A stretch of DNA of 53,894 nucleotides from a virus. Taxonomy: Duplodnaviria > Caudoviricetes. The DNA is taken from IMG/VR virus record IMGVR_UViG_3300010293_000478, positions 1 to 53,894 of that record. One strand, given 5' to 3'. The translations under genes and the position numbers were made by a program. Of the stretch, positions 22,840 through 51,862 are shown one piece after another. How positions within the stretch are numbered: position 1 is the first letter of the stretch; every line of letters begins with the position of its first letter. The notes beneath the pieces are model-generated. The model did no database searches, was not told where the DNA came from, and saw only the letters and a program-made list of their open reading frames with translations.

Positions 22840-22877
22840 AAACAACCCTACATTTTTAGTTCAAGTTGTTAGCGCTG

Positions 22878-22966
22878 TGACCGGTACAGGACTCGAACCT
22901 GTGGGGTGTCTCTAATCCGTTGACCCTACCCAATTGAAGGGGTAGTTATCGAATCAAACTCCGGTC
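22878..22966 (-). tRNA. Non-canonical long tRNA-like RNA with UCA in the anticodon loop
   Basis: GACCGG/CCGGTC acceptor, CTACCC-CTTCAATT-GGGTAG arm, long variable region, ACAGG-TTCGAGT-CCTGT T-arm. Confidence 0.55.
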
Positions 22967-27315: not shown

Positions 27316-27852
27316 TTACAACTGAGCTTTTCGCTGAATTTTATAATATTTGAGGGTTTGAGACTGCTCCATTGCCACCAAGTAAATTGCTAACGCATCA
27401 GCAACCGCCTCGTCCCGGAACTTAACCCCAGTCCATGGTACTTTTAATTTCCTACCAACCGCCTCAATCATCTCTGCCTTAGTACATGACCGGGTTCCTA
27501 CTACAATTTTTTTGGAGTCATCCTCTGAATACATTTCCACCGGTAATTGAAGACATTGAGTCATGGTCACGACTATTCCCATCACAATACCAATCATCAC
27601 AGCTGCTTGAGCGTTTTGGCTACCGTGGGGTATTTCGCTAACCACGTAATCCACATCATACTGCTTAATTATGCCCAACAACTCCCTGACAATATCGGCG
27701 GTTCTCTCTGCCCGGTCATCTGACTTGCGTATTCTTTTCTTCTTTGCTGAGGGTTTAGTAACAATTACCCCAGTGGCGTATACTCGACCACTGACAGCCA
27801 CCACAGCCCATCCCCATGCAGTAAAACTGGGGTCATTAGTTAGTACCCTCAT
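27316..27852 (-). CDS. ruvC: RuvC-like Holliday junction resolvase
   Basis: NDPSFTAWGWA, VSE, and EAVADALAI motifs. Confidence 0.8.
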   Translation of the reverse strand: MRVLTNDPSFTAWGWAVVAVSGRVYATGVIVTKPSAKKKRIRKSDDRAERTADIVRELLGIIKQYDVDYVVSEIPHGSQNAQAAVMIGIVMGIVVTMTQCLQLPVEMYSEDDSKKIVVGTRSCTKAEMIEAVGRKLKVPWTGVKFRDEAVADALAIYLVAMEQSQTLKYYKIQRKAQL

Positions 27853-32408: not shown

Positions 32409-33806
32409 TTAAATTTTATAAAAACTTAAATCTGCCCAACTGGCATCAATCTCACCTAAATCAACCTCCACATCCATAGGCACGATAATCCACCGCCAAT
32501 GCTCAACTAATTCCTGAGTCATGACCTGTTTTATCAATTTAGAAACCCGGACCAATTCCGGAGGGTATATATCAAACACAATAGCATCATGAATCTGACC
32601 AATTATTTTGGATTGTAAATTTTGTAAAGAAAATAAATAATCCAACCGAATCAATGCCCACAATAAACAATGAAATGCCACGCCCTGCACCGGGTAATTA
32701 ATTATGTTGTTTGGTCTTAAAACCCCGGAACATCGGAAACCAGTGAACATATCAAAATAACCCTTTTTCTTATACTCGGCAATCCATTGCTCTTTCCATT
32801 TGGAATAAATAGGAAACCTTTTTGTCCAAAAATCATCCTCAATCACCCGAACATGCTCAATATAGTCATCCAAATTTTTAAAACCATTTGAGAGCATCAA
32901 ATCTCCCAGTGCGAAACCATCCTCAAGTGGTAAACCTTGTCCTTTTCTCCAATTACCATGGTCAGGGAGTTTCCCCCAAACAATGGCTAAATTAATAGCA
33001 CTATTCTTGTAGTAATCACCATAAAATTGAGGGAAAACAAATGAATTTTTTGCTGCTGATCTTAAAGTAGAATGAGCCGGATTGCTTTTAGTAAAATTAG
33101 ATAAACCAAATAATTGAACCGCCATATCACCATGCATGTCCGTAGTAGGATCTTTTATGTAACGTAGCATGGTTGGGTCCTTATGATAACACGCTGCTAT
33201 CCTGACCTCAATACCTTTAAAATCGACTTCCATTAATTGATGACCTACGCGTGGAAATAAAGCCCGGCGTGTTAATAACATAGCCTCTTTATCTCTTTTA
33301 GGTATGTTTTGAAAGTTAGGTGAGTCACTACTGGAACGAAAGGTCTTGACCAAATGTAAATTGTAAAACGGGTGTATAAACCCATCCACCTGCTCACGCA
33401 TAAACGCCCCCAAATAAGTATCACGAACTTTCTTTAATTTCCTTATTTGAAGCAAATCAACTAACTCCGGAATGTCCAATTGAAGTAAGGCATCCTCATC
33501 AGTGCTACCTTTACCACTCTCCGTTAGGGTGGTTGGTTTGATTTTCTTTTTATCATATAGAAATGTAGCAAGCTGGTCGTTACTATTGATATTGACCCGT
33601 CCTCCAAAACTATTATACCAGTGGCGATAAAATGAAGTTTCAAAAAACCGCTTTTCCAGTAAAGCTATTTTCCGGGTCAAATGATCATGCTTACTTTGGC
33701 AATATTCCATGTCGACCCGGATACCCTGACGCTCTGCCCTTGCCAATGCCAAAGCTCCGTCATGAAGTAATCTATAAGCCTCCCGTCGTGTTGGTTTTAT
33801 AAGCAT
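32409..33806 (-). CDS. polA: Family A DNA polymerase, polymerase subunit
   Basis: RSSSDSPNFQNIP, motif A DFKGIE, motif B RSAAK...FYG, motif C QIHD. Confidence 0.93.
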   Translation of the reverse strand: MLIKPTRREAYRLLHDGALALARAERQGIRVDMEYCQSKHDHLTRKIALLEKRFFETSFYRHWYNSFGGRVNINSNDQLATFLYDKKKIKPTTLTESGKGSTDEDALLQLDIPELVDLLQIRKLKKVRDTYLGAFMREQVDGFIHPFYNLHLVKTFRSSSDSPNFQNIPKRDKEAMLLTRRALFPRVGHQLMEVDFKGIEVRIAACYHKDPTMLRYIKDPTTDMHGDMAVQLFGLSNFTKSNPAHSTLRSAAKNSFVFPQFYGDYYKNSAINLAIVWGKLPDHGNWRKGQGLPLEDGFALGDLMLSNGFKNLDDYIEHVRVIEDDFWTKRFPIYSKWKEQWIAEYKKKGYFDMFTGFRCSGVLRPNNIINYPVQGVAFHCLLWALIRLDYLFSLQNLQSKIIGQIHDAIVFDIYPPELVRVSKLIKQVMTQELVEHWRWIIVPMDVEVDLGEIDASWADLSFYKI

Positions 33807-33807
33807 A

Positions 33808-35013
33808 TCAAAAAGGTAAAAAATCGTAATCTAATTCCTCAATCTGTTGTTCAGCAATCCTGTAGGTATATATAGCGTCCGAGGCACAATACTTCATTAA
33901 TCTTTGTAAACCATCCTCACTTTTAGTCAACTCCATGATATTATTAAATGAATTGGTATCCGGTGCCTGCAAGTAACGGGCAATCTCTGACGAATAATCA
34001 ACAATCCCGAGCCGAACATACGCTTGAAACTTTAATCCGGTAACGCCATCTCTATTGTCAAGTAAATGAGACGCCAGCATAGTGTCAAATGCCCATGACT
34101 CGACCGGCTGGCGCAACACCACATTGGACCAATGGTCCTCATACTTCATGTTTTGTGCAATCTTATATACGCCCGGGTTTGCTAATAAATCCAAAAAAGG
34201 TTTTCTACCTTCTTTAGTTACTGGCATCTTAAATACATAGCAATGAGTAGATGATGTCGCCACAGCCACGCAAACAACACGATGACCAATAGCATGAGGT
34301 TTCAAACCAGTGGTTTCATAATCAAACGCTATTGTAGACCCGGTTGGTATTGTATATAAAGGGGTTAGGTCTTCCAAAACCTGCATCGTAAAGTTTGGTT
34401 GGCGTTTCCATGGTTCTTTTAATTGATCAACCGCCTTCTTTATGTCTTGTTTAAAAAACAATTCATAGTCGGAACCCTTGGATAAAACAAGACCCGGTGC
34501 AAATGTAGGAGCAACGTAACATTTCAAATCCTGATCCGGAATGACAAAACCACGCCACTTATCTATTTTATCCATATCCTTAGAAAAACGTTGACCAATC
34601 AAAGAAATGACCGCAGGCATTCCCAGCAGTATTATCAATTTTGGTTGGTACTCTTTGATGTGAGAAAATACAATACGCCTGCAGCAATTCAATTCATGAG
34701 GTGAGGGTAAACGACCTCCCGGGTAGCAATTAATTGCGTTGATACTAATACAATCGTTATGTAAATCAATGCCCGCTGACTCCAAACTCTCCTCCAGTAA
34801 TTGCCCTGACCGGTCTTGCCAATGTTTTCCACGCGAATCATCGGCCTCGGTTGGCGCCTCCCCTATTAGCATTACATGTTTCTTAAAACCACCGGTTGGT
34901 TTCATTTTAGCGGTATGAACATCTCTATACAAACCACAGGCAAAACAAGTCAGGGACTTACCACCAACCCGGTGCAAAGATTCAGTTTCCTTTTTACTAA
35001 AAAACCCTTGCAT
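33808..35013 (-). CDS. Family-4 UDG-like domain fused to a 3'-5' exonuclease (N-terminal part of split PolA); likely start MQGFF
   Basis: CFAC, IGEAP, NAINC, PKLIILLG; then FDYETTGL, QNMKYE, DTML and YCASDA. Confidence 0.88.
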   Translation of the reverse strand: MQGFFSKKETESLHRVGGKSLTCFACGLYRDVHTAKMKPTGGFKKHVMLIGEAPTEADDSRGKHWQDRSGQLLEESLESAGIDLHNDCISINAINCYPGGRLPSPHELNCCRRIVFSHIKEYQPKLIILLGMPAVISLIGQRFSKDMDKIDKWRGFVIPDQDLKCYVAPTFAPGLVLSKGSDYELFFKQDIKKAVDQLKEPWKRQPNFTMQVLEDLTPLYTIPTGSTIAFDYETTGLKPHAIGHRVVCVAVATSSTHCYVFKMPVTKEGRKPFLDLLANPGVYKIAQNMKYEDHWSNVVLRQPVESWAFDTMLASHLLDNRDGVTGLKFQAYVRLGIVDYSSEIARYLQAPDTNSFNNIMELTKSEDGLQRLMKYCASDAIYTYRIAEQQIEELDYDFLPF

Positions 35014-35015
35014 AC

Positions 35016-36035
35016 TTAGGATGCTCTTAATATCGCAATATAGACCCAATTTTCACCTTCAAATTTAATACGAGAATCCCCTACTACAGCCTCCAACGTT
35101 TCTTTTAGAACCTCGATAAAAAGATAGGGGGTTATGGAGAAAGAAAGGGGGTTGCCGGAAAACTTCATGTTAGCATCCTCCTCAAACCAACCGGTTTCTG
35201 ACTCAGCCCGTATATTAATGCGATTGTTTGCCACGCTCACCACCACGCTCTCATCCAAGAAATGATCCCTTTTACCCATAACAGCCGCCCTCTCAAGTAT
35301 TTCCAATATGGTTTGTGGGAATTTGATTTCCGCTCCTGACACCTCAAGTAAACGGGCTATGTCCGGGAAAGACTCCTGCAAAACCCGGGAACTTATTTGA
35401 GTACCAAATTCGTTCCGGAAATGAATCCAATTATCAGCAACGGAGACCTCTGTAGGGTTGTAACGCATAATAACTGCTAAATTGGTAGCTGGTATTAAAA
35501 CCGGTTCTTCCAATTCCACCGGATCGTCAAAATAGGCAACGCCCAGTCGAAAACCATCAGAGGCGGTACAGCCACTCTGCTCAAATTTAACAGCAGTTAA
35601 TACCGGACGAGACATATCCCTCGACGCGGCACCAATAACCTTTTGTACAATGGCGTTAAAGCTCGTAGGCAAGGTAATCCAATCTTCTGCCTGACCAACC
35701 TCCTCCAACGGAAGTGTAATTTTAGCCTGTAGCGCAAAACCCGCCCGGGAACGACCGGCAGTCAATACAATTTCACTCTCTGTGACTTCCAAATCAACTT
35801 CATCCTTTTTCATTTTACTGAGCATTTTATACATCTGCTCAGCTTTGATTGCGCCCTCAAACGTCAGACCGGTCACCGGGTGACTTATGCTCAAGTCATC
35901 ATTGTAAGTCACCACACAACCATCCTTGAAAATAAAAGAATCTGTCTGCTCGATTATGTCCTTACTACCGAGTGCTGGTTTTACAATTTCCAACGCCTCC
36001 AACAAATCATTTTTTTTGATCACAACTTTTTTCAT
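35016..36035 (-). CDS. dnaN: DNA sliding clamp (DnaN/beta-like)
   Basis: 339 aa; SRPVLTAV, ASDGFRL and FPDIARL motifs. Confidence 0.85.
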   Translation of the reverse strand: MKKVVIKKNDLLEALEIVKPALGSKDIIEQTDSFIFKDGCVVTYNDDLSISHPVTGLTFEGAIKAEQMYKMLSKMKKDEVDLEVTESEIVLTAGRSRAGFALQAKITLPLEEVGQAEDWITLPTSFNAIVQKVIGAASRDMSRPVLTAVKFEQSGCTASDGFRLGVAYFDDPVELEEPVLIPATNLAVIMRYNPTEVSVADNWIHFRNEFGTQISSRVLQESFPDIARLLEVSGAEIKFPQTILEILERAAVMGKRDHFLDESVVVSVANNRINIRAESETGWFEEDANMKFSGNPLSFSITPYLFIEVLKETLEAVVGDSRIKFEGENWVYIAILRAS

Positions 36036-36210
36036 CTCTTTGCTTTTTACGGGAAACCCTCCCTATTTTAACATACTGAATTAATTCCTCATCTGTAACT
36101 TTTTGCTCCTTTATAAAATGATAACTAACCAAACGAGTATTAGCCCTCTTTTTTGTTAAGGAACGTCCTAATGTTTCATCAACCAACCACGTAGCAAAAT
36201 ACACTTTCAT
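36007..36210 (-). CDS. Small protein resembling the DpdA N-terminus
   Basis: MKVYFA...RLVSYHF aligns with MKVWFA...RLYSYHY of the upstream gene. Confidence 0.6.
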   Translation of the reverse strand: MKVYFATWLVDETLGRSLTKKRANTRLVSYHFIKEQKVTDEELIQYVKIGRVSRKKQRDEKSCDQKK

Positions 36211-37247
36211 TCAAAAAACCCTTTCATTACTTTTTTAGTATGAAATGCCCACGGCCACTCCGGCATGTTTTGTTCCAAATCCAGAAAGTAAATTATGTTA
36301 AGCTCATCACGTTGAACATAGTTGTTGGACAATCCGGGCTCCTCAATGATTTCCAATAAACGGGTTTTAATGCTTTTATCTACTGGTTTCTTCTCTGCCC
36401 ATTTTTCCCCCGGCTTTAGTTCATCATAAGTTATTGGACGTTTTTCAAATCGGGACTTACCAAGCACAAAACCCTTCTCATGGATGTAATTCATAAAAAT
36501 AGACTTTTCTACGGGAGTCAAAGTCGTTATGTGCTTACCGGCATCCTTCTGATTAGGACTGCGATTGGAAACCGCTATTTTCCACGAATTTTCATCGTAA
36601 ACCCACTCTCCACCCTTATAACGAGGAATCATAATAGACCCCAACCTCCCCGTAAGCACCCAGCTTGTTGAGTCAACAGAGTACCACGGGTAGCGTAGCA
36701 TCAGTGGTAAACTGGTCATGCCAAATGCATGTACTTTAACTTTTGGCAAACCAGTCGAATCAACTAAATAATTGGACCAAATTCTATCCAGATACAAAAC
36801 CAAGTCGGAGGTTTTTACCAAACCCCCTAAACATATGTAATCATATTTTTCCAACAAAGGAACCAAAAACTCATCAGGGTCACTTCCATGATGGAAAACA
36901 GGCAAAGGTTTCAAACCAGCCGCTTCCATTTTCTTCAAATTACGGGCACTGGCAATAGGATTACCAATGACATCCAGATTAGCATAAACAGTAAGTAAAT
37001 GCTCATGCTCTTTTATGAAGGCTATATAAGCATCAATATCAATGGAAAGACCCTGTGACTTTGCCGAAAACGCACCGGAATCCAAAAACAAATCAATTTT
37101 ATTAGTCATACAATACTGAATTAAAGTGCCCACATTAAAAAAATCAATATGAACATAATGATATGAATATAAACGACCCACACCGTATGAATGCAATACA
37201 TGCTCCCGTGATAAAGTACCAGTATTACCAGCAAACCACACTTTCAT
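36207..37247 (-). CDS. dpdA: DpdA-like DNA-guanine transglycosylase (TGT fold)
   Basis: [28 protein letters not shown] and SVDSTSW motifs; next to folE and queC. Confidence 0.8.
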
Positions 37248-37852
37248 CGCAACAAACTCATTAATTCCTGCCGAGCCTGCGACTCCGTCATAAACACCCC
37301 TCTCATACTGCTGGTGCTCATAACTGAGTTTTGTTTACCCACCCCACGCATCCGCATGCACATATGGGTAGCCTCAATTATACAGGCAGCCCCCTTTGGT
37401 TTTAGGTACTCCATAAGGGAATCAGTCACCTGATCTCCAATCCGCTCCTGAATTTGTAAACGCCGGGCAAATATATCAACCAACCGGGCAAGTTTGGAAA
37501 TACCTATAACCTTTCCGTCAGGTATATACGCTACATGAGCCTTGCCAAAGAATGGTAACATATGGTGCTCGCACATGGAATACAATTCAATATCCTTCAA
37601 TAGTACAATCTGGTCATACCCACCGGAATCAAACACAGTCAAAACATCCTCCGGTTTCTGCGAATAACCCCGGTAAAGTTCAGACCATGACTTAACCACC
37701 CTTTTAGGAGTATCCAATAAACCCTCCCGGTTAGGATCCTCCCCGATAGCAACCAGTATAACCTCAATATTGGTTTTTAACAATTTAAAATCGTCAACAA
37801 ATAACAATGAACTATCTTCTTTCATACTCCTAACTCCTTTCGTAGTAAACAA
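37244..37852 (-). CDS. folE: GTP cyclohydrolase I
   Basis: [31 protein letters not shown] and HMCMRMRG motifs. Confidence 0.97.
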
Positions 37853-38487
37853 TTATCACACCTACCACAAGGTGGTGTGAAGTAACAACTGTACGTTTTG
37901 TTGTAATCCACACCCATTTCCCGCCCACAAACAATCACATCTGTTTTATCCCAGCGCAATTCGTAAAACGGAGCCCTGACCCGGACTTGATGAGAATATC
38001 CGAGTTGACTAATTAAGTTAATAATGTCAACAAATTGGGGTGAATTATCACCCGTAAGCAATTTATAAGACCGACGGTTCATCCATTCCGCCTCACCATA
38101 TAAATAACCAAGCAACAACTCATCTATTTTATTGGCAGAACAGTAAGCAAGGGCGTATGTTAACATAATTGAATTGCGCCCCTCTACAAAGAAATCAGCA
38201 TACCGCAATTTATCCCAATCAGCCAACGGATTTACCTCATTTGGTACATAGTTTGATTGGAATAATCCCGGACGAGCCTGCCAGTCATGTATTGGTATTT
38301 TTATCACCACAAGTGGGGGTAGGCTTAACTTAGTTATATGATGATTTAACAATTCGATCTGCTTTTCAAAAACAAGCTGACCATAATCAACCGTAATTAC
38401 GGTTGGTGATAAACCCTTGTATTTGTAAAGCAAAGTGGTGGAGTCTAATCCACCTGTTGCCATTATGGCTGTTTTAGGTTTATGCAT
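37822..38487 (-). CDS. queC: QueC-like PP-loop enzyme (copy 1)
   Basis: TGGLDST, DYGQ, EGRN, DNSPQF, SCY...CGRCDNC motifs. Confidence 0.8.
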
Positions 38488-39155
38488 TTTTGTATGTCAT
38501 TAATTTCAAAACCTCGATTTTTAGTAACACTTTCTTCAAGAAAAGCAAGCAGATGATCTACAGGGTTATTAAGCCAATGACCAGACGTATCAATGCCATT
38601 AAGCTCCAAAGCCACATATTTACGTAAACAAGACCGACAAATACCACAAGGCTTATGCAACCCCTCATAACAACTAAACGAGTTAGTCAGTAGATAAGAC
38701 GCAGGGTGGTCTTTCTCAAGGTATAAAGCAACTAATTCTGTCTTAGTTAAATGCTTGAAAGGCAGATCAATAACAAAAGGACCTTGAATCAATACTTTTT
38801 GAGTATCGGTAGAAAAGTAATTCAAAACACCCTCTACCTGACTTTTAAACACATAGTCCTTATCTTTAGTCGTATCACCTAATGTAAAACCAAATATGAT
38901 ATGATTAGCGTAATTGGCGGCAACTAATGCCAAAAAATGATTACGAAAAGGTATTATGTTATTTTTCAACGAAAAAGCAGCTAAAGGCATACCCACCTTA
39001 ATAACTCCGGGAAAGTAATTATCTATTACTGACTGCTCCATTCGATTTTCAGCAGTGCCCATGTCTACGAATAAACACCTCTCATTCGGAATTTGTAGAA
39101 TAGATTTAATTAAGTAAGAATCCAAACCCCCACTAAACATCAATAAGTTGGCCAT
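38463..39155 (-). CDS. queC: QueC-like PP-loop enzyme (copy 2, divergent)
   Basis: SGGLDS, IPFRN, LTK, SCY...CGICRSC motifs. Confidence 0.75.
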   Translation of the reverse strand: MANLLMFSGGLDSYLIKSILQIPNERCLFVDMGTAENRMEQSVIDNYFPGVIKVGMPLAAFSLKNNIIPFRNHFLALVAANYANHIIFGFTLGDTTKDKDYVFKSQVEGVLNYFSTDTQKVLIQGPFVIDLPFKHLTKTELVALYLEKDHPASYLLTNSFSCYEGLHKPCGICRSCLRKYVALELNGIDTSGHWLNNPVDHLLAFLEESVTKNRGFEINDIQKCINLKQP

Positions 39156-39388
39156 CTCACTCCTCCTACATTTTTATCATCTATATAAGCATCAGCTCTC
39201 AATTTATCCATAACAAGTGCATGATATTTTATGCCCAGCTCAAATAACTCACTTTCAGTCTGCTTGCGAGTAGCAGATGATCTTGCAGTATAGATAACTA
39301 TAAAATTATTAGGATCCTCGTACAATTGACTAACTATATTTGGATTAATATTAGCAGTTCCATCAAAATCAATTGCTATAACACGCAT
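39140..39388 (-). CDS. Minimal HAD-superfamily phosphatase-like protein
   Basis: IDFDGT, YTAR, K...YIDDK (all four HAD motifs). Confidence 0.75.
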   Translation of the reverse strand: MRVIAIDFDGTANINPNIVSQLYEDPNNFIVIYTARSSATRKQTESELFELGIKYHALVMDKLRADAYIDDKNVGGVRWPTY

Positions 39389-39421
39389 CTATCACTTTTA
39401 TAAGATTAATAACTTTATTTT

Positions 39422-39463
39422 AAAAAAATGCCGGGATGCTCCCAAAAATAGGCGCAATCCCGG
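39422..39463 (-). terminator. Probable Rho-independent terminator
   Basis: CCGGGAT...ATCCCGG followed by a T7 tract on the minus strand. Confidence 0.55.
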
Positions 39464-39481
39464 AATAATCTCATAAACATA

Positions 39482-40210
39482 TTACTTCAACTTCGGGTCG
39501 TTTTCACCCATAGGTCCATAATGTTTCTCGTACAGTTTGAAACGGTTTATAGACCAACTCTCTGATTTGTCAAAGGTCTTCATCAAAGCAGCCACTAAAT
39601 CAACTGATTTCATCTTCTTTTTGATGCAATCGCGAATGAAAGCTGTTTGATTAGGTTGGTCATCTTTCTTCTTTTCAGCCGGGAGTTTAGTCTCCGTTTT
39701 TGGTTTCTCACTCCCCTTAACAGGTTCCGGGGCAACAACCACTCCCAAACATTCAAACATCTTCGTGGTCAAAACTGACACCTCAAAAATGGTCTTGACC
39801 TTGTTTTTGATTGCTTTGAACGAAACATCCTCAGCAACCATGGCTTTCAGTGCCTTAATAGCCTTGTCCGGTTTCTGCCCGGCTGCTGCCTCAATTTTGG
39901 CAATCAATTCGGCTTTAGGATCCTCGTCAGCCTCATCCTCGTCGGCATCCTCGTCAGCCTCATCCTCGTCAGCCTCATCCTCGTCGGTATCCTCGTCAGC
40001 CGCAAAAGGCCACAATTCCAACTCTTCCATGAACTGCCTGACATTATCAGCAATCTCCGGAATGTCGGACTCTTCCAACAAGTCGACCGCTTCCTTAACT
40101 TTCGCTTTCAGAGCATCCTCTTTTACACCAACTACTTTGAGTTTCGGGTCCAGTCCCAATACTTCGTTCAGGCTTTTAGCCACAATTTGCAATTTTTCCA
40201 AAGTTTTCAT
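39482..40210 (-). CDS. Hypothetical protein with acidic DEADE tandem repeats
   Basis: Has its own TGTATAATA motif and terminator; imperfect repeats at ~39920-40000. Confidence 0.6.
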   Translation of the reverse strand: MKTLEKLQIVAKSLNEVLGLDPKLKVVGVKEDALKAKVKEAVDLLEESDIPEIADNVRQFMEELELWPFAADEDTDEDEADEDEADEDADEDEADEDPKAELIAKIEAAAGQKPDKAIKALKAMVAEDVSFKAIKNKVKTIFEVSVLTTKMFECLGVVVAPEPVKGSEKPKTETKLPAEKKKDDQPNQTAFIRDCIKKKMKSVDLVAALMKTFDKSESWSINRFKLYEKHYGPMGENDPKLK

Positions 40211-40317
40211 TTTTTGTGATTTTTAATGATTAATTAGATATTGAAATCTTTTGTTGTCATATTATACAACAACTAATCCTTTTGCTAAAAAATTTGTAGA
40301 AAATTTTACTACCTTTT

Positions 40318-41163
40318 TCACACACCCGTCAGCTTGTCCCACAAAACCACGTGCTCCCGAGTACTATACCGAACATTGTACTTCAATGCCATCTGCACCA
40401 CTGCCGGGCGGTTTATCTCTAATTCAGCCAACGAACCGCCGAGGGGCATTAAAACAATCTGCTGCTTCTTAACCAAACCGGGTTTAAGGAAATCCACCTC
40501 AATTTCTTCCCACTCCGATTCATCGGACACCACAAACTTGAACCAGCTATTCGGCAATAAACTGAGACCTTTGATTATCGCCGGTCTGTATTGGCGGTGG
40601 CGTGGGTTACCGGCATTGCTCAGTTTAGGGCTATTATTCCAACAATCCACCATTTTAGAAAACAACCGGTTTGGGAGTAGGGTACATTCGTTTTCGACCT
40701 CTATATAAGGTTTGAAGGCATACCGCTCCATAAACGCCTGTAAAAAGACTAACAAAGCATTCTGCTGGTTTAAGGGACTACCTCCAGTAAACACTAAACG
40801 TTGACCATCATGCAAACGCTCCGGCAAACCAACCGAATCCATTAATGAAAGCAATTCAGTAATGGTGTACGGGTTGCCATACTTCCAAACCTGCTGCGTA
40901 TCGCACCACCGGCAATTTAGGGTACATTCCTGTAAACGTAAGAATGCTGCAGGAAATCCCACAAAGTTTTCACCCTGAATGGTGTCACAGAAAAATTCAG
41001 ACACCCGCAAAAAAACACCATCCGGGTCAGGAACCCGGACTTTTGGGTGACTCTTAATGATAGTCGTTGGAAACATACTCACAACTTGTTTTAGGGGTTT
41101 CCGACATTTCAATTGAATAAAGGTCCGGGAAGAATGGTTTGAACAATGAGTATATTCTTTCAC
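40318..41163 (-). CDS. queE: 7-carboxy-7-deazaguanine synthase (radical SAM); true start probably near 41076
   Basis: TIQGE, FLRLQECTLNCRWCDT, TGG and SPK motifs. Confidence 0.9.
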   Translation of the reverse strand: MKEYTHCSNHSSRTFIQLKCRKPLKQVVSMFPTTIIKSHPKVRVPDPDGVFLRVSEFFCDTIQGENFVGFPAAFLRLQECTLNCRWCDTQQVWKYGNPYTITELLSLMDSVGLPERLHDGQRLVFTGGSPLNQQNALLVFLQAFMERYAFKPYIEVENECTLLPNRLFSKMVDCWNNSPKLSNAGNPRHRQYRPAIIKGLSLLPNSWFKFVVSDESEWEEIEVDFLKPGLVKKQQIVLMPLGGSLAELEINRPAVVQMALKYNVRYSTREHVVLWDKLTGV

Positions 41164-45616: not shown

Positions 45617-46099
45617 TTATACAGAGAAATCAGTCTTTGCCAAAATTGCTGGCATGTTTTGCATAGTTGTCCAAATACTCTTCCACTGCCAGCCCCGGTT
45701 TCTTAATTCCCGGGTCAGGGCACCCCTTGCCATTTTAGGAGCAATGCTTTCCAATTCTTCAAAATTTTCCAGGATGATACGTACCAATTCCTGACACTCA
45801 GCAGGCCATGACTTGACCTCGTCCTGAAAGGTTTGGATTTTATCCTCGTAATTTTCCACTGACATTGCTGCATCTTTCAAGCTGGTGCTCTTGTGCTTCA
45901 TTTCTTGCTTGCAGTAGTTAGTCAAGTGGTTTTGCATACAACGATAAATAAAAGTGGTTGATTTCACCCCTTTTGAGGGGTCAAACCGACTCATGGCCTC
46001 AGTGTAAGCCAGCCCGGCCTCACTAATTAGCATTTCTACATCAATTCCGGTGGTTTTGTTGAATGACCACGCTACCTGATAAATAAGATTGAGTTCCAT
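45617..46099 (-). CDS. Phage sigma-70-like factor
   Basis: Region 2-like EAMSRFDPSKGVKSTTFIY. Confidence 0.7.
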   Translation of the reverse strand: MELNLIYQVAWSFNKTTGIDVEMLISEAGLAYTEAMSRFDPSKGVKSTTFIYRCMQNHLTNYCKQEMKHKSTSLKDAAMSVENYEDKIQTFQDEVKSWPAECQELVRIILENFEELESIAPKMARGALTRELRNRGWQWKSIWTTMQNMPAILAKTDFSV

Positions 46100-46118
46100 G
46101 GTATTTGTTTTAGATTTA

Positions 46119-46173
46119 ACACTGACCCGGTTTCCCGGGTTTCGTCTTAATTTTCAAAGACTCATCAGAGTGT
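46119..46173 (-). ncRNA. Type I hammerhead ribozyme (copy 1)
   Basis: ACACU-CUGAUGA-GUCUU/AAGAC-GAAA-CCCGG/CCGGG-UC-AGUGU: full catalytic core, three stems, GUC cleavage triplet. Confidence 0.92.
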
Positions 46174-46174
46174 T

Positions 46175-48223
46175 TTATTTATAGGAATCTAAAAGATCAG
46201 CGAGCAGTGATTGGTTCTGTTTGTCGTGCCCATCCAAAACCTGTCCTAAAACTACGCGTTTTTTATCTAACAATTCCGCTATTTTCTGCTCAATAGTACC
46301 CTCTGCCAATAGATAGTGGATTGTTACTGCGTTCTTCTGACCTATACGGTGGCAGCGATCTTCTGCCTGAACCAAGTCACCGGGGGTCCATGGTAATTCT
46401 AATATCGCCACGTTGCTGGCTGCGGTCAGGGTTATACCAACCCCGGCGGCTTTTATATTACCCACAAACAATTTAATATTTGGGTCTTTTTGGAACTTAT
46501 CCACAGCCGCCTGTCGGTCGCTAACCGGGGTCGAACCATCTATTTTAACAGCGGTTGGAAATTGTTTCATTAGTGCCTCAATTACAAATTTATGAGTGGC
46601 AAATATGACCAATTTTTCGTCAGTTTCTAAAAAATCCTCAATCCAACTAATAGCCTGTTTTAACTTACCGGCTACTGCTAATTGTTTTAGACCTTCGATT
46701 TCAGCAAGGGTTTGGGCATTGCTGGCTTTTTCTGCAGCAGAATTACCTTTAGTGCTTCTCACATATTGAATAAAGTCCGCTGAGGCCTTTTCATATTCTC
46801 GACGATTATCCAACTCTACCGGAATGTAATTCCAAACTTTGTCAGGGAGTTCAGTGAGCACGTCCTTCTTTAAACGGCGTATCATTATGGAGTCAGTCAA
46901 TTTTTTATGTAGTTCCTGAGTATTAGAACTTCCGTTAAAATTCCAACCATACCCGTTGTTAATTGGGTTGCAATAACGTTGAGCAAACTGCCAGAATGAA
47001 TTGAACAAGGTGGGGTTGATAATACTGATGGCATTAAACATCTCCACCGGTCTGTTTACAATCGGGGTCCCTGACAAGGCTATAAAATGAGGGATGTTTT
47101 TTGCTAACTTCTTAATAGCCTTAGTCCGGTCAGCATTGTTGTTTTTATAATAATGACACTCGTCTGTTATCACCACTTTAGGCATGACCCTTTTTAAAGA
47201 ATCAACCCATGAGGCAAGCGTATCGTAATTAATAATAACAATGTCCTCAATGATTGGTTGAGGAGTACGTCCGGAAAGGATTTGAACTTTAGTGCCCGGC
47301 ATCCACTTACCCACCTCATTTTTCCACGCTGATTTTACGCTGGCTGGTGTTATAATTACTACCGGTCTTAAAGTGGGGTTAGCGGCTAACCAAGTTAAGG
47401 CCTGAGCAGTTTTACCCAATCCCATCTCATCAGCAAGTAATGCCCTACCTTGTTGTTTCTGAATGAACTCAACCCCTTTTATTTGATAGGGTTTCAAAGA
47501 AAGTCCGTTATTGATAGAAAGTTCCTTAATTTCCGGGACTTCTGTAGGTAGTGGTTTTGGTAAGGCTTGTTCTACGTCAGGACGCAGAGTAAAACCAAAC
47601 CCTTTCAAGGCATCCACGTTTTCCTGAGTTAACGGGGCTGTCCAATATTTTACCTCACCCTCAGCATGAAAACGCCGACCTGATAAGGTTTTGACCTGCT
47701 CAACCACTTTATAATCAAAAGGGAATGTGATTTTCACACCATACTCCCCGGTGGCTTTATAAGTAGCTAAAGTCACATATTTTTCCGGTAATTTTTCAAC
47801 GAAAACCGGTTGAACAGGCGCTATCTGTTTAGCGGGATTCATTGGGTGATTGTCAGGTACGAACAATTCGCCTTCGGTGGGGGTGTTACTTTTTACAACT
47901 GATTTTGGAACCCATTGGTCAATCTTTACGTCAGTGATTTTGACTTTCAGACTTTCCAACAAGGCCTCCGAATAACCACCAATCTTATCCCAATCCCAAT
48001 AGTGGGAACCACATTCAGGACCAATACCGAGCACCACGCTTACTGGGTGGGTCAATTGCCTGCCACAAATACAACATATGTTCATTTTCTGACTCTCCAA
48101 AGTACCATGACCATAAAGATACAAGGCTTTGTGGGTCTCCTTCAAAATAATGGCTTTCACTACTACGGGTATTTTATTTTCCCGGGCAAAAACCTTTCGC
48201 AAAACAAATACTTTTGCTTCCAT
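46175..48223 (-). CDS. SNF2-family (HARP/SMARCAL1-like) helicase with N-terminal zinc finger
   Basis: ADEMGLGKT, DECH, SGTP, GVGITLT and QAEDRCHRIGQ motifs; N-terminal CCIC...GIGPEC. Confidence 0.92.
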   Translation of the reverse strand: MEAKVFVLRKVFARENKIPVVVKAIILKETHKALYLYGHGTLESQKMNICCICGRQLTHPVSVVLGIGPECGSHYWDWDKIGGYSEALLESLKVKITDVKIDQWVPKSVVKSNTPTEGELFVPDNHPMNPAKQIAPVQPVFVEKLPEKYVTLATYKATGEYGVKITFPFDYKVVEQVKTLSGRRFHAEGEVKYWTAPLTQENVDALKGFGFTLRPDVEQALPKPLPTEVPEIKELSINNGLSLKPYQIKGVEFIQKQQGRALLADEMGLGKTAQALTWLAANPTLRPVVIITPASVKSAWKNEVGKWMPGTKVQILSGRTPQPIIEDIVIINYDTLASWVDSLKRVMPKVVITDECHYYKNNNADRTKAIKKLAKNIPHFIALSGTPIVNRPVEMFNAISIINPTLFNSFWQFAQRYCNPINNGYGWNFNGSSNTQELHKKLTDSIMIRRLKKDVLTELPDKVWNYIPVELDNRREYEKASADFIQYVRSTKGNSAAEKASNAQTLAEIEGLKQLAVAGKLKQAISWIEDFLETDEKLVIFATHKFVIEALMKQFPTAVKIDGSTPVSDRQAAVDKFQKDPNIKLFVGNIKAAGVGITLTAASNVAILELPWTPGDLVQAEDRCHRIGQKNAVTIHYLLAEGTIEQKIAELLDKKRVVLGQVLDGHDKQNQSLLADLLDSYK

Positions 48224-48266
48224 TGTTTCAAATTTTATGAGGTAGTTAATTTATACCTCTGGTTTA

Positions 48267-48321
48267 ACACTGACCCGGTTTCCCGGGTTTCGTCTTAATT
48301 TTCAAAGACTCATCAGAGTGT
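48267..48321 (-). ncRNA. Type I hammerhead ribozyme (copy 2)
   Basis: Identical 55-nt sequence to copy 1; intergenic. Confidence 0.92.
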
Positions 48322-48323
48322 TT

Positions 48324-48560
48324 TTAAGTTCTTAAATTTAGGAGGACCACCTGCTCCTTATTTGACCACATTCTTACTTTACTCAGCAACTCGTCACAAG
48401 TTTCGGGAAACTGTTTTATTATGTCACTTGCTGATAAATAGGGGTGGCTTATAAAGTGGCATTGCACCTCATCACGAGATCCATTTTTGGTTTTTCTCCG
48501 AGTGGTTATCAAGGCTATGGAATAGCCCTCTGTAGTTTTGATAAACGTTTTTATTTTCAT
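48324..48560 (-). CDS. Hypothetical early protein
   Basis: Stop codon abuts hammerhead copy 2. Confidence 0.55.
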   Translation of the reverse strand: MKIKTFIKTTEGYSIALITTRRKTKNGSRDEVQCHFISHPYLSASDIIKQFPETCDELLSKVRMWSNKEQVVLLNLRT

Positions 48561-48663
48561 GGTATTTGCCCGTGTAGCCGATAGCGCAGCTTGTTGGTTA
48601 ATTATTTGTAATCATTCATATGCCATTCGGTCAGGTGTATTTCAATTCTCACCTTAGTTTCTG

Positions 48664-48924
48664 CTACCATGATTCGCCAATGTATTTAAGTTCATAATGT
48701 TTAATCAAAAAATCAATGTTCTCTCTTTTCCACTTGTCCATTGACTTGCGACTATAAGGGTGTCCATCACCCTCATACCTGATTAGTGTGGCTTCGACTG
48801 TTTTAGGCATCACCTTTCTAACAGTTATTTGAATTGATTGTGGTGGCAATGGATTTTCCATTTCGTAGGTATAGTCATTGTAGTAGATGCCTACTTTCAA
48901 ATCTATTGCTATTACTGTTTCCAT
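48664..48924 (-). CDS. Hypothetical early protein
   Basis: ATG with an A-rich leader. Confidence 0.55.
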   Translation of the reverse strand: METVIAIDLKVGIYYNDYTYEMENPLPPQSIQITVRKVMPKTVEATLIRYEGDGHPYSRKSMDKWKRENIDFLIKHYELKYIGESW

Positions 48925-48948
48925 TTTGGTTGTTTTTAAGTGTGTTAA

Positions 48949-49137
48949 TTAATTTTTAATGATTGCTTTGATTTTGAGGTGCTTTAAAACCTCTTGTAAT
49001 TCAGCATTGGTGTACTTTTCAGCCACTTCCTTGCTGACGTTATTATGACAGACAGCTATATGAACCGCCCTTGCCTTCGTGATTGATGTTCTCCGTGGTT
49101 TCATGGTCATTAAATTTGCGATCTGACACCATTCCAA
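48949..49137 (-). CDS. Hypothetical early protein; true start probably MTMKPRR
   Basis: Short ORF coupled to the upstream stop. Confidence 0.45.
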   Translation of the reverse strand: MEWCQIANLMTMKPRRTSITKARAVHIAVCHNNVSKEVAEKYTNAELQEVLKHLKIKAIIKN

Positions 49138-49601
49138 TACATTTGGACATCATTTACATCACATAGAACTCGATCAGTTGCCCAACTTTCAAACGGGGCG
49201 GTTTCCCAATCCTCCGGGATTTCCTCCTCAAAAACTAACCGACCCCTGCTCGCTATTTTGAGCATGACCAATTCCTTTTCTTTCTCAGTTAATTCATAAT
49301 CCTCAAGTATAGAGGAGTCCGAAGCCCAACCACCTCCTGATAAAATTTTACCAACAAATTCTTCAACTCTTTCAAGATTAAAAGAACAAGCATCACCTGC
49401 CTCAACCACTGGAGCTGTGTATAGGGTGGTGTCAGATTCCTCCTCATAAAAGGATTTTAACAATACCTCTTTAGGAGTGTCAGGATCAGTACCTGATGTA
49501 ATAACAATTAAGTTAGATAAGGAGCTGTTGTGTGCCCGGGCAATTTCAGCTTCTGCCAAAATCTGCTCAAGTCTTTCAATAGAAATCTCAATACGATTCA
49601 T
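49110..49601 (-). CDS. Hypothetical acidic early protein
   Basis: Starts 27 nt after the hammerhead copy 3 cut site. Confidence 0.6.
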   Translation of the reverse strand: MNRIEISIERLEQILAEAEIARAHNSSLSNLIVITSGTDPDTPKEVLLKSFYEEESDTTLYTAPVVEAGDACSFNLERVEEFVGKILSGGGWASDSSILEDYELTEKEKELVMLKIASRGRLVFEEEIPEDWETAPFESWATDRVLCDVNDVQMYWNGVRSQI

Positions 49602-49623
49602 GACTTTTAATTTTTAGGATTTA

Positions 49624-49678
49624 ACACTGACCCGGTTTCCCGGGTTTCGTCTTAATTTTCAAAGACTCATCAGAGTGT
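49624..49678 (-). ncRNA. Type I hammerhead ribozyme (copy 3)
   Basis: Identical to copies 1 and 2; a UGA in the core is the stop codon of 49670..49987. Confidence 0.92.
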
Positions 49679-49987
49679 CTGATTATACGTGTGAGTATAT
49701 AAACCTTCCACGTACATAGTTATGCTCTTTCTTTTGTTTCTTACAGCCCATTGTAGGTGTTGGAGGGCTTTGTAAACTCTACCGGCGTATTCTGCCTTTT
49801 TTGTTTCTGGATTAACCCAAACAATATCCCCTCCATTCATTTGATGAATCCTATTCAAACCCAATGTATATCCTTCATTGAGTTTTTTAAGCACCTTCTG
49901 TTGTGGTTGAGTTAGTTTTTTATCGGCCTTTAATTCATTGGCGATTGAAATAAATTCGTTTAGGCTAATTCGGTCCTCTTTTTTCAT
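49670..49987 (-). CDS. Hypothetical basic early protein
   Basis: Flanked by hammerheads 4 and 3. Confidence 0.6.
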   Translation of the reverse strand: MKKEDRISLNEFISIANELKADKKLTQPQQKVLKKLNEGYTLGLNRIHQMNGGDIVWVNPETKKAEYAGRVYKALQHLQWAVRNKRKSITMYVEGLYTHTYNQTL

Positions 49988-50009
49988 GACTTTTAATTTT
50001 TAAGATTTA

Positions 50010-50062
50010 ACACTGACCAGCCGGTCAGGCTGGTTTCGCCTCATAAAGGCTCATCAGAGTGT
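50010..50062 (-). ncRNA. Type I hammerhead ribozyme (copy 4, covariant stems)
   Basis: ACACU-CUGAUGA-GCCU/AGGC-GAAA-CCAGCC/GGCUGG-UC-AGUGU. Confidence 0.92.
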
Positions 50063-50078
50063 TTTTAAAAAACGCAGA

Positions 50079-50321
50079 TTAATATTGTACGAAAATCAAA
50101 CGTTCCAGATATGGTGAACCGTTCGGTTTGAGCTGCTTGACCCACATATGGTTTGAGCCAAAACCCCAGATAAAATATTCTGCGCGCGCACATCCAAACT
50201 CACGTCTTAACTCTGTTTCATTGTTTGCCGATTGAATACTGTTCAATATGTACGCAAACTCAATCAACAACATTTGTTTTTCAGGGATGATTCTCAAATT
50301 ACTTTCAATTGTACATTTCAT
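50079..50321 (-). CDS. Hypothetical early protein
   Basis: Carries the same 27-nt leader as 49110..49601. Confidence 0.6.
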   Translation of the reverse strand: MKCTIESNLRIIPEKQMLLIEFAYILNSIQSANNETELRREFGCARAEYFIWGFGSNHMWVKQLKPNGSPYLERLIFVQY

Positions 50322-50354
50322 GACTTTTAATTTTTAGGATTTAACACTTTTTAA

Positions 50355-50770
50355 AAAACATCGTACTGTTCCGGGACTCGAACCCGGATGTCTGCCTGTA
50401 CAGTTTTGAGCTTAACTCAAAAATTCCGCATTCGTTCAAGACGACCGCGCAACGCCTCCCTTCTCCTGTATTTAGTCTATTCTCCCCTGACGGGTGTCAT
50501 TAACTTCAAAGGTCCCGGCATATTGCCCTTATTGGAATCCCGCTCAGTAACGTGGATATGAAGGAAACCAATCCCCCCACCCCAGTGTTTTCAGGCAACT
50601 GGGATCCTGCTGAGCCACCACCGATTTCGGACGAACCTACCCTTGCGCTCTACAACCTTAGTACGACTTTCTCCACAATCTCTCAGGGTTTCAAAAACCC
50701 CCTTTTTATACTAACCCTGTGGCTCTCAAGGGATTACCTACTTTTCAGTGCTTTCAAAGAACGACTTCCA
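50355..50770 (-). ncRNA. Candidate large structured non-coding RNA / leader ending in a tRNA-like T-arm
   Basis: No ORF of 60 aa or more on the coding strand, raised GC, several complementary segments, and CCGGG-TTCGAGT-CCCGG. Confidence 0.5.
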
Positions 50771-50774
50771 TGCC

Positions 50775-50808
50775 ATAAAGATACGGCAATAAATAAAGGA
50801 TCCTAATA
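50775..50808 (-). promoter_or_regulatory. Bacteroidota-type early promoter candidate, followed by boxA-like GTTCTTTGAAA
   Basis: TTAG-N19-TATCTTTA resembles the TTTG-N19-21-TAnnTTTG consensus, with one mismatch in each box. Confidence 0.5.
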
Positions 50809-50899
50809 TTTTTTGTAAAAATTTCCTAATTTATAATGATTATAAATAATACTACTTGAGAACCAAGTAGTTAGCTGAAAAAGGGAATGAAAAATATTT

Positions 50900-51490: not shown

Positions 51491-51862
51491 TTAGTAAGTC
51501 CATATTACTTGTCCGGGTTTATCAGGGTCGTCATCCGCGTGGATAAACGTTTGGGCAATACCAATACGGGTAAATCCTACGGCAATCAGTGCTTGCACAA
51601 TTATCCATTTCTCTCCGGAACTGATTGCTTTTATATCCATCGCCCGGCATTTCTTTGTCGGCGTAAAAACATGACTACTTGTTCCCGGACGGCCTTGTTT
51701 CTTTTCGTGCTCCGGGGTTCGAGCTGCTGAGGTTGGGATGAATGGTATTCCGGCGACTTCCCGGGCAGCATTAAACTTTCTTAATGTTTCCGAATGGATG
51801 TCATCCTTACGACAAGGGGGTGTGGTTTTGTCAAAATCTGACTGTGAAAAATAGTCCTTCAT
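51491..51862 (-). CDS. Endolysin, peptidase M15-type
   Basis: SAAR, SSH...AMD and RIGIAQTFIHAD motifs. Confidence 0.85.
   Translation of the reverse strand: MKDYFSQSDFDKTTPPCRKDDIHSETLRKFNAAREVAGIPFIPTSAARTPEHEKKQGRPGTSSHVFTPTKKCRAMDIKAISSGEKWIIVQALIAVGFTRIGIAQTFIHADDDPDKPGQVIWTY

Follow-up and report, generated by a model that had tools for sequence, protein, structure and literature searches.

The window analysed here is a whole phage contig of 53.9 kb (53,894 nt) whose genes are all carried by the minus strand, as are all features located below; the phage probably infects a Bacteroidota bacterium. Loci fetched for comparison are designated by L-numbers (L118, L119, L127, L139, L140, L170 and so on). 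The early region begins after a lysis/late block, which includes an M15 endolysin-like gene (51491-51862) and is closed by a terminator-like hairpin at 50851-50871 whose 9-bp stem leads into a T-rich tail; a palindrome resembling this hairpin occupies the equivalent place in L118 and L119. The order of the early region is then a 390-nt non-coding RNA, small orphan genes, a helicase gene, a sigma-like gene and the replication genes.

The non-coding leader RNA (about 390 nt, 50405-50790) is GC-rich, contains no ORF and stands ahead of the first early gene. Non-coding stretches are found in the same place in L118, L119 and L140. The RNA has no Rfam match at E≤10 and folds no better than its shuffles (z -0.43), the four-sequence alignment being too poor to yield a structure. 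It is followed by a tRNA-like T-loop helix (50365-50404), in which a T stem of 5 bp carries a TTCGAGT loop and is joined to an acceptor-like stem, likewise of 5 bp; the helix ends 16 nt before the first copy of a 27-nt leader. At the corresponding site, the helices of L118 (position 3090) and L119 (position 4472) are stronger, their acceptor-like stems having 8 bp, and in L140 a hammerhead ribozyme (605-661) stands there instead. The helix of the window is the weakest of the three: its T arm is canonical, its acceptor-like stem has only 5 bp and there is a 1-nt offset. ARAGORN calls no tRNA at any of these three helices, and the Rfam tRNA model gives sub-threshold scores for L119 (16.3 bits) and L118 (18.8 bits) and no match in the window. 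The T-loop scanner itself returned 23 hits as compared with 2-6 in 368-kb decoys, which is a real false-positive rate.

The first three early genes are small. The 80-aa gene (50079-50321), whose ORF starts at leader copy 1, has no match in Pfam or PHROGs, and its product is 32% identical over 74 aa to that of the gene after hammerhead 1 of L170. The 105-aa gene (49670-49987) and the 163-aa gene (49110-49601, starting at leader copy 3) encode proteins with no match in Pfam or PHROGs and no usable family in the Atlas; a search of viral contigs gave no relative, and 5.8 billion protein clusters yielded nothing but the two proteins themselves, both of them also encoded in identical form by a second contig, 60,128 bp long. 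These three leader-preceded genes are indeed unrelated to one another, as the preliminary description of this DNA had it (BLASTP, best pair E 0.69). Three further small genes without a ribozyme ahead of them come next (48324-49110), encoding 53 aa (48949-49110; its start overlaps the stop of the 163-aa gene as TAATG), 86 aa (48664-48924) and 78 aa (48324-48560); the 53-aa protein is 62% identical to the product of the gene after hammerhead 4 of L170. Two conserved anchor genes follow, one for a SNF2-family helicase with an N-terminal DUF6011 domain (46175-48223), the other for a 160-aa sigma-70 region 2-like protein (45617-46099).

Hammerhead ribozymes and their leaders

Four type I hammerhead ribozymes lie within 4 kb, all on the coding strand, and together with the leaders they fill the intergenic gaps. 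Two of them had been picked up by the preliminary description: hammerhead A (50009-50063, predicted cut 50015/50014) and hammerhead B (49623-49679, predicted cut 49629/49628). It had missed the other two, hammerhead C (48266-48322, predicted cut 48272/48271), which precedes the helicase gene, and hammerhead D (46118-46174, predicted cut 46124/46123), which directly follows the helicase stop codon and precedes the sigma-like gene. Each of the four begins at most 15 nt after the upstream stop codon or overlaps that stop. The core is complete in all copies, with CTGATGA, GAA, the A-T pair closing stem III and the C at the cut site, and each copy has three helices, an open stem I of 6 bp and loop-closed stems II and III; the minimum-energy fold of C and D is a three-way junction. 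Hammerheads B, C and D are 50-51/51 nt identical (C and D 51/51, C versus B 50/51), whereas A shares 37-38/51 nt with them, its stems II and III being unlike theirs and resembling those of L170.

The scanner that detected these elements is specific: it gave 23 hits against none in 368 kb of decoy sequence, reversed or shuffled, and over 1.48 Mb the counts were 168 and one. The stems are further supported by covariation in a sequence-only MAFFT alignment of 14 hammerheads of the lineage, which includes four L170 copies and one L174 copy and leaves out three copies with a longer stem II, a duplicate L118 copy and the L132, L133 and L138 copies (a first alignment of 18 hammerheads was left unused, the three longer-stem-II copies being misaligned in it). 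All 237 cells pair, a completeness that is partly built in because the scanner that chose the sequences requires paired stems, and in 12 of the 17 pairs both partners have changed; covariation scores 0.745, compared with 0.232 for shuffles (0/500 reach 0.745) and at most 0.183 for slid partners. Rfam hammerhead gathering thresholds are not reached, either by the copies of the window (RF03152, 25.6 of 56.3 bits; RF00008, 24.8 of 48.5 bits) or by the L170 hammerheads (30.7 bits at most). The Rfam models that were matched describe other topologies or bear an extra hairpin. Inspection by eye revealed no consistent pairing partner for loop II and no sign of a stem I-loop II contact of the kind that speeds up cleavage; given also the short 6-bp stem I, cutting could therefore be slow at cellular magnesium levels. 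Judged by their sequences, the four elements most likely self-cleave.

A feature singled out earlier, namely that a core UGA of hammerhead B doubles as the stop codon of the upstream gene, holds: with the CTGATGAG core beginning at 49673 and the upstream ORF running to 49670, the stop of the 105-aa gene (TGA, 49672-49670) is the core TGA. Ribosomes terminating inside the core could unfold this ribozyme before it cuts. We considered the shared TGA as a special coupling device and rejected the idea: similar overlaps occur in 3/5 copies of L118 and 1/4 of L170, and such a rate of about one in three is what is expected by chance for ORFs that enter a ribozyme in any frame, so that the overlap reflects tight packing.

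The 27-nt leader is present, as originally reported, in three minus-strand copies that each directly precede an ATG (50322-50348 and 49602-49628 with no mismatch, 49988-50014 with one), and none of 100 shuffles gave a match (0 expected). The first copy, again as had been noticed, has no ribozyme upstream; a complete type I hammerhead stands ahead of each of the other two. The proposed unit, a gene plus a ribozyme plus a standard leader, has fared less well. A hammerhead followed by a leader is indeed what is found, but the blocks between successive hammerheads contain one, four and one genes (B and C being separated by four genes and not by one), and two of the five leaders deviate. The 48-nt helicase leader (48224-48271) matches the standard leader in its first 9 nt only and then forms a 6-bp hairpin; the 24-nt leader of the sigma-like gene (46100-46123) matches it in its first 11 nt. 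Thus, the leaders of units 1, A and B are 26-27/27 nt identical, and those of C and D differ. The leaders are mostly A/U-rich, and there is no Shine-Dalgarno sequence. Over the first 60 nt after the cut, the three standard leaders fold at -1.2 to -3.1 kcal/mol, weaker than shuffles, copy 2 being almost without structure (-1.24 kcal/mol).

Two observations, the absence of a ribozyme at leader 1 and the presence of similar A-rich motifs upstream of other phage genes that have no ribozyme, indicate that leader function does not need cleavage. Alternatively, the leader could be a binding site on DNA or RNA, either as a promoter recognised by the phage's own sigma-like factor or as the site from which a translational repressor jointly controls the early genes, with the ribozyme mainly ending and stabilising the upstream message. 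Positions 7-20 of the leader are indeed alike in this genome, L118, L140 and L170, a conservation that exceeds what stem I needs, and the phage encodes a sigma-like protein. However, a promoter that close to the ATG would produce almost leaderless messages, and the sigma-like gene itself lies downstream of ribozyme/leader units. A scan for sigma-70-type promoters, other promoter types being outside its reach, found 14 sites in the early region for 15.1 expected, no signal above chance and no site within the units. The spacing to the start codon also points away from a binding site. Over all the fetched loci, 94 of 126 unique hammerheads have the start of an ORF of 40 codons or more at a distance of 19-49 nt downstream of the cut, compared with 559 of 3360 random same-strand positions (16.6%); the rule extends to hammerheads with unrelated leaders. 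We therefore regard a binding-site function of this kind as unlikely.

Turnover of the units and the recombination question

Hammerheads arranged in a similar layout and with a related leader are found in L118/L127/L139 (five), L140 (four) and L170 (four). They are rare among the loci retrieved with the helicase, where only 4/40, corresponding to two distinct phages, carry them; the closest relative found by the helicase search, over viral and metagenome contigs, is at most 63% identical, and in an annotated phage collection only about 44 nt of ribozyme were matched, in two Crassvirales genomes. Within this set, the units turn over quickly. Homologous gene starts differ among relatives in whether a ribozyme is present: hammerhead D, for example, sits at the helicase/sigma junction in this genome only, the junction having no hammerhead in L118 and L140. 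Ribozyme and leader types are also paired differently from unit to unit, both in this genome and in L118. As the ribozymes of each relative differ, the near-identity of B, C and D suggests duplication or gene conversion among units.

That units come and go rapidly at homologous gene boundaries, that copies within the genome are near-identical and that only a small fraction of helicase-related loci have hammerheads could all be expected of selfish or neutral repeats that are tolerated between genes and bring no benefit to the phage, some copies perhaps being inactive. We find this highly unlikely. In all 13 copies of the three genomes that have the anchor helicase (this genome, L118 and L140) the core is perfect and the stems have stayed paired, with changes that compensate one another, and all copies lie on the coding strand with their cut site at a set distance before an ATG; this placement and this distance indicate selection on function.

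The preliminary description suggested that the repeats could be points at which accessory genes are gained, lost or shuffled by the phage RecA/UvsY. In support of such a DNA-level role, which is compatible with RNA processing, the phage encodes a UvsX-like recombinase (27849-28889; phrog_97, E 1.2e-46), adjoined by a RuvC-like resolvase gene (27316-27852) and near an exonuclease gene (26190-27239); the recombinase part of that proposal thus stands, and UvsY was not identified. Exact direct repeats exist as well, although they are shorter than the roughly 80 bp first claimed: units B, C and D share 59-62 nt, and units 1 and B share 32 nt. Several features of the early region fit with shuffling at these repeats, including the mixed ribozyme/leader types, the variable occupancy of gene starts and the replacement in relatives of the small genes between conserved anchors. 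In the regions of this genome, L118 and L140 that were compared, the helicase, sigma-like and primase-like anchors are the only ORFs with a counterpart in either of the other two, and in L170 other gene sets surround the homologues of the 80-aa and 53-aa genes. A precedent is offered by the PeSL (promoter-early stem-loop) repeats of T4-type phages, which shuffle genes and form mini-circles (PMC2839356).

Yet several observations argue against the repeats acting mainly as crossover points. Some replacement boundaries lack a repeat: in this genome there is none where the 163-aa gene meets the 53-aa gene (the TAATG overlap), and in L170 none after the 80-aa homologue. Recombination between C and D would remove the helicase gene, and early regions made of variable orphan genes are common in phages without such repeats. 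In addition, relatives as distant as these (helicase at most 63% identical) do not allow breakpoints to be placed at the nucleotide level. Among the sequencing runs on record, one, a DNA run, contains this sequence and none of the RNA runs does; its contigs break at the four repeats (46142/46147, 48292/48295, 49626/49649 and 50319-50346), with no joint or circle; given that contigs drop rare variants, these missing joints neither support nor refute recombination. A loose contig end at 49644 was examined as a candidate recombinant and set aside: it carries a hammerhead with the same stem II and a different stem III, and probably comes from another phage in the sample. Overall, crossover as the main function of the repeats is possible but, in our view, not the probable explanation; RNA processing provides a simpler primary role, of which recombination at the repeats would at most be a side effect.

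The two levels could also be combined. Across these phages, the hammerhead-leader units and the T-loop helices might be interchangeable, self-propagating modules, each setting the 5' end of an early message, that are copied and homogenised by phage recombination and also serve, as direct repeats, as crossover points for orphan genes. This somewhat more doubtful proposal would, if true, place the modules beside the PeSL cassettes of T4-type phages as their counterpart at the level of RNA processing. Both kinds of repeat are short and regulatory, lie amid non-essential orphan genes in a variable early region and are candidates for shuffling; as described by Arbiol et al. 2010 (PMC2839356), PeSL combine a promoter and a terminator and thus act on transcription, while the units described here combine a ribozyme and a leader with no promoter signal.

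Probable processing of the early message and known systems

We consider it likely that the hammerheads cut one long early message into pieces with near-identical short leaders. This reading presupposes that the early genes are co-transcribed and that the ribozymes cleave themselves in vivo. With the cut falling behind the C of GTC, each ribozyme in its folded form would stay on the upstream RNA as its 3' end, and the downstream RNA would start with AGTGTTAAA, the ATG following 24-48 nt further on with no Shine-Dalgarno sequence. The outcome would be separate messages that share near-identical 5' ends, three of the five leaders being predicted to be near-unstructured and the helicase leader to carry a 6-bp hairpin. 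The host probably starts translation on such open, A-rich leaders rather than at Shine-Dalgarno sites, and cleavage may affect translation or the stability of the RNA. For the first early message, which has a leader and no ribozyme, host enzymes of tRNA processing may define the 5' end by cutting at the T-loop helix.

In synthetic insulators of the RiboJ type, a self-cleaving ribozyme placed upstream strips variable RNA and leaves a fixed 5' end. RiboJ is engineered with an added hairpin, the phage units being natural and repeated, and the functional equivalence is suggested by analogy. By the same principle, with a cut just ahead of a fixed leader, we propose that the expression of each fast-exchanged gene would be freed from the influence of the sequence upstream. 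The ribozyme-plus-leader units would themselves spread and become homogenised within the genome through duplication or gene conversion.

The layout of clustered phage hammerheads has been known since 2011 (PMC3088659). As presented in that report, prophage hammerhead clusters flank single genes or short blocks of changing identity, and long transcripts are cleaved in vitro. The present array, four coding-strand copies at 46118-50063 flanking genes of which, the anchors apart, none recurs in L118 or L140, resembles those of Perreault et al. 2011 in its clustering on one strand and in its non-conserved flanked genes, and the role proposed is common to both, the conversion of long phage transcripts into gene-length mRNAs (PMC3088659). 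Compared with the arrays as they are described there, a number of differences stand out here: (i), all copies are of type I, with an open 6-bp stem I, and the cut goes with a shared leader and lies 24-48 nt upstream of the ATG; (ii), modules are mixed and homogenised within the genome, and a tRNA-like helix occupies the first position. The supplementary alignments of PMC3088659 might already include hammerheads of the present type.

Related arrangements have been described in other viruses. In the haloviruses HF1 and HF2, 13 nt separate the HHphage hammerhead from the early helicase gene downstream of it, and the mapped transcript 5' end is at most 3 nt from the cut site (PMC3088659). Hammerhead C similarly stands just ahead of an early-region helicase gene; HHphage differs in being, in that account, a single variant copy in an archaeal virus, with no array and no shared leader. 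Lopez-Galiano et al. 2026 (PMC13725137) describe type I hammerheads in the 5' UTRs of RNA viruses and link their self-cleavage to translation of the ORF that follows; the setting reported there is eukaryotic and involves cap-independent translation, in contrast to a DNA phage of a bacterium (PMC13725137). In the main texts of the literature searched, no paper mentions both hammerheads and crAssphage, and of the papers that mention crAss-like phages and ribozymes, those checked refer to group I introns only or to self-splicing introns in general.

The early region described here would provide an example of how a phage standardises the expression of fast-changing orphan genes. Given the rapid turnover of its units, this phage family is well suited to testing whether regulatory repeats drive phage gene shuffling, and its ribozymes and leaders are possible insulator parts for work in Bacteroidota.

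Leaders and hammerheads at the head of the early operon

The window is one entire contig of 53,894 bp, and all its sizeable ORFs lie on the minus strand. A lysis-type block, which includes an M15 peptidase-like gene (51491-51862, minus strand), precedes the early region and is closed by a terminator-like hairpin (50851-50871, minus strand). Then follow an ORF-free stretch of ~550 nt, a series of small genes (80, 105, 163, 53, 86 and 78 aa, in that order), the SNF2 helicase (46175-48223, minus strand) and a sigma-70 region 2-like protein (45617-46099, minus strand), beyond which lie primase, replication-initiation and DnaB-like proteins and more replication genes. The region that carries the leaders and hammerheads is the head of the early/replication operon.

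Several other features of the genome deserve mention. A cluster at 36207-41163 encodes QueE-like, two QueC-like, GTP cyclohydrolase and tRNA-guanine transglycosylase-like proteins, a 7-deazaguanine (queuosine/archaeosine-type) set that suggests modified phage DNA. The DNA polymerase (32409-35049) appears to be split over two adjacent ORFs, 33808-35049 and 32409-33806, matching consecutive parts of phrog_17 (profile positions 479-829 and 833-1233). Rfam places two tRNAs at 22689-22761 and 22768-22838, of which the latter has an unusually short anticodon region; on 22689-22930 ARAGORN calls tRNA-Met only, and a third T-arm-like element lies near 22897. In the 86-aa early gene, contigs of the sequencing run carry small variants within 48845-48924 (3-nt insertions behind 48874; G>A at 48889), which suggests strain-level diversity.

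The preliminary description reported a 27-nt leader directly before the start codons of three unrelated genes, and this holds: the copies lie at 50322-50348 (leader 1), 49988-50014 (leader A, one mismatch) and 49602-49628 (leader B), none of 100 shuffles matched, an ATG adjoins each copy, and the best BLASTP pair among the three leader-led proteins is no better than E 0.69. Its further claims, that the first leader is ribozyme-less and that a core UGA doubles as an upstream stop codon, are borne out as well: no hammerhead precedes copy 1, full type I hammerheads precede copies 2 and 3 (ribozymes A, 50009-50063, and B, 49623-49679) and, since the core CTGATGAG starts at 49673 and the 105-aa ORF ends at 49670, the core TGA is the stop codon of that ORF. 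We read this overlap as a result of tight packing. Two hammerheads of the same kind had been missed, one before the helicase (ribozyme C, 48266-48322) and one before the sigma-like gene (ribozyme D, 46118-46174).

In all four ribozymes the core is full, an A-T pair closes stem III, the cut-site base is C, stem I is open and 6 bp long, and stems II and III are closed; for C and D, the three-way junction is the minimum-energy fold. Our hammerhead scanner returned 23 matches in the window plus 40 helicase-related loci (368 kb) and none in reversed/shuffled decoys, and 168 matches versus one in decoys on a larger locus set (1.48 Mb). When 14 lineage hammerheads are aligned by sequence only (MAFFT), 237/237 cells are paired and 12 of 17 pairs change on both sides; the scanner demands paired stems, so that 100% pairing is partly built in, while the variety of pair types is not. 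The covariation score of 0.745 compares with 0.232 for shuffles (0/500 reach 0.745) and at most 0.183 with slid partners. In an Rfam search, ribozymes A-D stay below threshold, the best scores being 25.6 bits for RF03152 (threshold 56.3) and 24.8 for RF00008 (48.5). The array is a real, well-supported hammerhead-punctuated early operon.

The ribozymes start at most 15 nt past the upstream stop codon or overlap it, the intergenic gaps are filled by ribozyme and leader, and the distance from the predicted cut to the next ATG is 27, 27, 48 and 24 nt for A, B, C and D, respectively. Among the 126 unique hammerheads of all fetched loci, 94 have an ORF of at least 40 codons that begins 19-49 nt past the cut, as compared with 559/3360 random same-strand positions (16.6%); the loci were mostly picked by ribozyme pattern and hence selected for the ribozyme, not for a nearby ORF. 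A scan confined to sigma-70-type promoters gave 14 sites versus 15.1 expected, no more than chance. In the three standard-leader messages, the first 60 nt after the cut are predicted to have almost no structure, folding at -1.2 to -3.1 kcal/mol, weaker than their own shuffles. In relatives (L118, L127, L139, L140, L170 and L174), the leader likewise opens with the stem I 3' strand followed by related A-rich sequence; A-rich motifs resembling the leader also precede ribozyme-less genes elsewhere in the phage. The early genes have A-rich leaders without an AGGAGG-type site; such ribosome-binding sites occur at several late/structural genes (e.g., before 51475, 14556, 14097 and 7610).

Most likely, each hammerhead folds while the early transcript is being synthesized and cleaves behind the C of GTC. 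The RNA upstream of the cut would retain a compact ribozyme with a cyclic phosphate at its 3' end, and the downstream piece would begin with a 5'-hydroxyl followed by the fixed open leader. The hammerhead family as such is established to react in this way; for ribozymes A-D we infer it. Cleavage would be expected to uncouple neighbouring genes from one another, let stability differ between RNA pieces and create uniform start sites free of upstream context, much as synthetic ribozyme insulators (RiboJ) do.

The ribozyme-less first leader and T-loop helices

How does the first gene acquire a post-cleavage leader? Ending 16 nt ahead of leader 1 is a T-loop hairpin (50365-50404, minus strand) with a 5-bp stem, a TTCGAGT loop and, closing it, an acceptor-like stem of 5 bp. 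Clearer T-loop helices, with 8-bp acceptor-like stems and a T-stem sequence different from that of the window, occupy the same place just ahead of the first early gene in the related phages L118 and L119; in L140, a hammerhead directly follows the non-coding RNA. None of the three helices is called a tRNA by ARAGORN, their Rfam tRNA scores are below threshold, and the T-loop scanner (23 matches versus 2-6 in decoys) lacks the specificity of the one for hammerheads. It is about an even call whether host tRNA-processing enzymes cut at helix 50365-50404, making it an alternative processing signal; such cutting would explain a post-cleavage leader without a ribozyme. Moreover, the 11 nt preceding leader 1 match those preceding ribozyme A, so that unit 1 looks like unit A minus its ribozyme.

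More distant helicase relatives without hammerheads also carry T-loop helices, placed after a stop codon and ahead of the following ATG (L121 ~1337, L124 ~2379, L125 ~2783 and 3437); ARAGORN calls no tRNA among them, and they appear to punctuate genes there in the way that hammerheads do elsewhere. Separately, four related phages have, after the late terminator and before the first early gene, a GC-rich non-coding RNA of 210-470 nt (window 50405-50790, minus strand; L118 2640-3040; L119 4185-4450; L140 395-600). The four have in common one short motif near the 5' end, have no Rfam match and fold no better than shuffles.

Distribution and exchange of the repeats

The closest helicase relatives are at most 63% identical. 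Hammerheads lie upstream of the helicase in 4 of the 40 helicase-related loci; six others, whose upstream sequence spans at least 700 nt, have none. The five of L118 recur at identical positions in L127 and L139, and L140 has four, so that two distinct phages are represented. A pattern scan of bacterial/archaeal genome contigs added two loci: L170, a 2.9-kb contig with four units whose stems resemble those of ribozyme A, and L174, on a contig binned with Weeksellaceae. Hammerheads 73-129 and 2584-2640 of L170 are near-identical except that the stem III tip is reverse-complemented, which looks like a hairpin-tip inversion. In an annotated phage collection, the ribozyme itself is the sole match, in two Crassvirales genomes, and at least 116 IMG/VR contigs (4-282 kb), crAss-like genomes included, contain an exact copy of the 30 nt that make up the core plus stem II of ribozymes B-D. 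In the loci sharing this sequence (L001 3001-3060, Crassvirales cr272_1, and L002-L117), it lies within unannotated spacers. Our search of main texts in a literature library found no paper connecting hammerheads with crAss-like phages or crAssphage.

The preliminary description also proposed that the repeats could be recombination points at which accessory genes are gained, lost or shuffled. Support for this is partial: sequence is clearly exchanged among the repeats, and a role for them as crossover points of gene shuffling is a testable idea. Ribozymes B, C and D are identical at 50-51 of 51 nt and A matches them at 37-38/51, while leaders 1, A and B are identical at 26-27 of 27 nt and those of C and D are common over the first 9-11 nt only; B thus combines a C/D-type ribozyme with a 1/A-type leader. 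Modules are mixed in L118 too, where ribozymes 2 and 4 are identical and so are leaders 1 and 2. Copies are identical within a genome and stems differ in every relative, which requires recent duplication or gene conversion.

Ribozyme occupancy also varies at homologous gene starts. Ribozyme D, at the helicase/sigma-like junction, is found in the window only (L118 has a 22-nt spacer, L140 overlapping genes), and a ribozyme precedes the helicase in the window and L140, not in L118. The 80-aa gene, ribozyme-less in the window, has a 32%-identical homologue downstream of hammerhead 1 in L170; the 53-aa gene, whose start overlaps the end of the 163-aa gene as TAATG, has a 62%-identical homologue after L170 hammerhead 4. 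Gene content is replaced as well: ORFs of at least 35 aa match between the window, L118 and L140 only as helicase, sigma-like and primase-like, and for the 105-aa and 163-aa genes no relative turned up among viral contigs, 5.8 billion protein clusters or L170. A UvsX-like recombinase, a RuvC-like resolvase and an exonuclease are among the phage's gene products, and regulatory repeats that shuffle orphan genes have a precedent in PeSL cassettes, as outlined in PMC2839356. Against crossover at the repeats, some replacement boundaries are repeat-free (the 163-aa/53-aa gene junction in the window; in L170, the gap that follows the 80-aa homologue) and one to four genes make up each block between ribozymes. 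The relatives are too distant for breakpoints to be placed, and the sole sequencing run is kept as contigs, which break at the repeats.

A known kind of array

Perreault et al. 2011 (PMC3088659) describe similar prophage arrays, in which several hammerheads flank single genes or short blocks of changing identity and cleaved ~2-kb transcripts in vitro, and a halovirus hammerhead 13 nt ahead of an early helicase gene. Type I hammerheads in RNA-virus 5' UTRs enable translation, according to PMC13725137, and a 2019 review (PMC6765202) counts what such ribozymes are for among the questions still unanswered. The hammerhead-punctuated early operon of the window belongs to this already known kind of array, to which it adds evidence of module mixing, turnover of ribozyme occupancy between relatives and a T-loop helix heading the operon.
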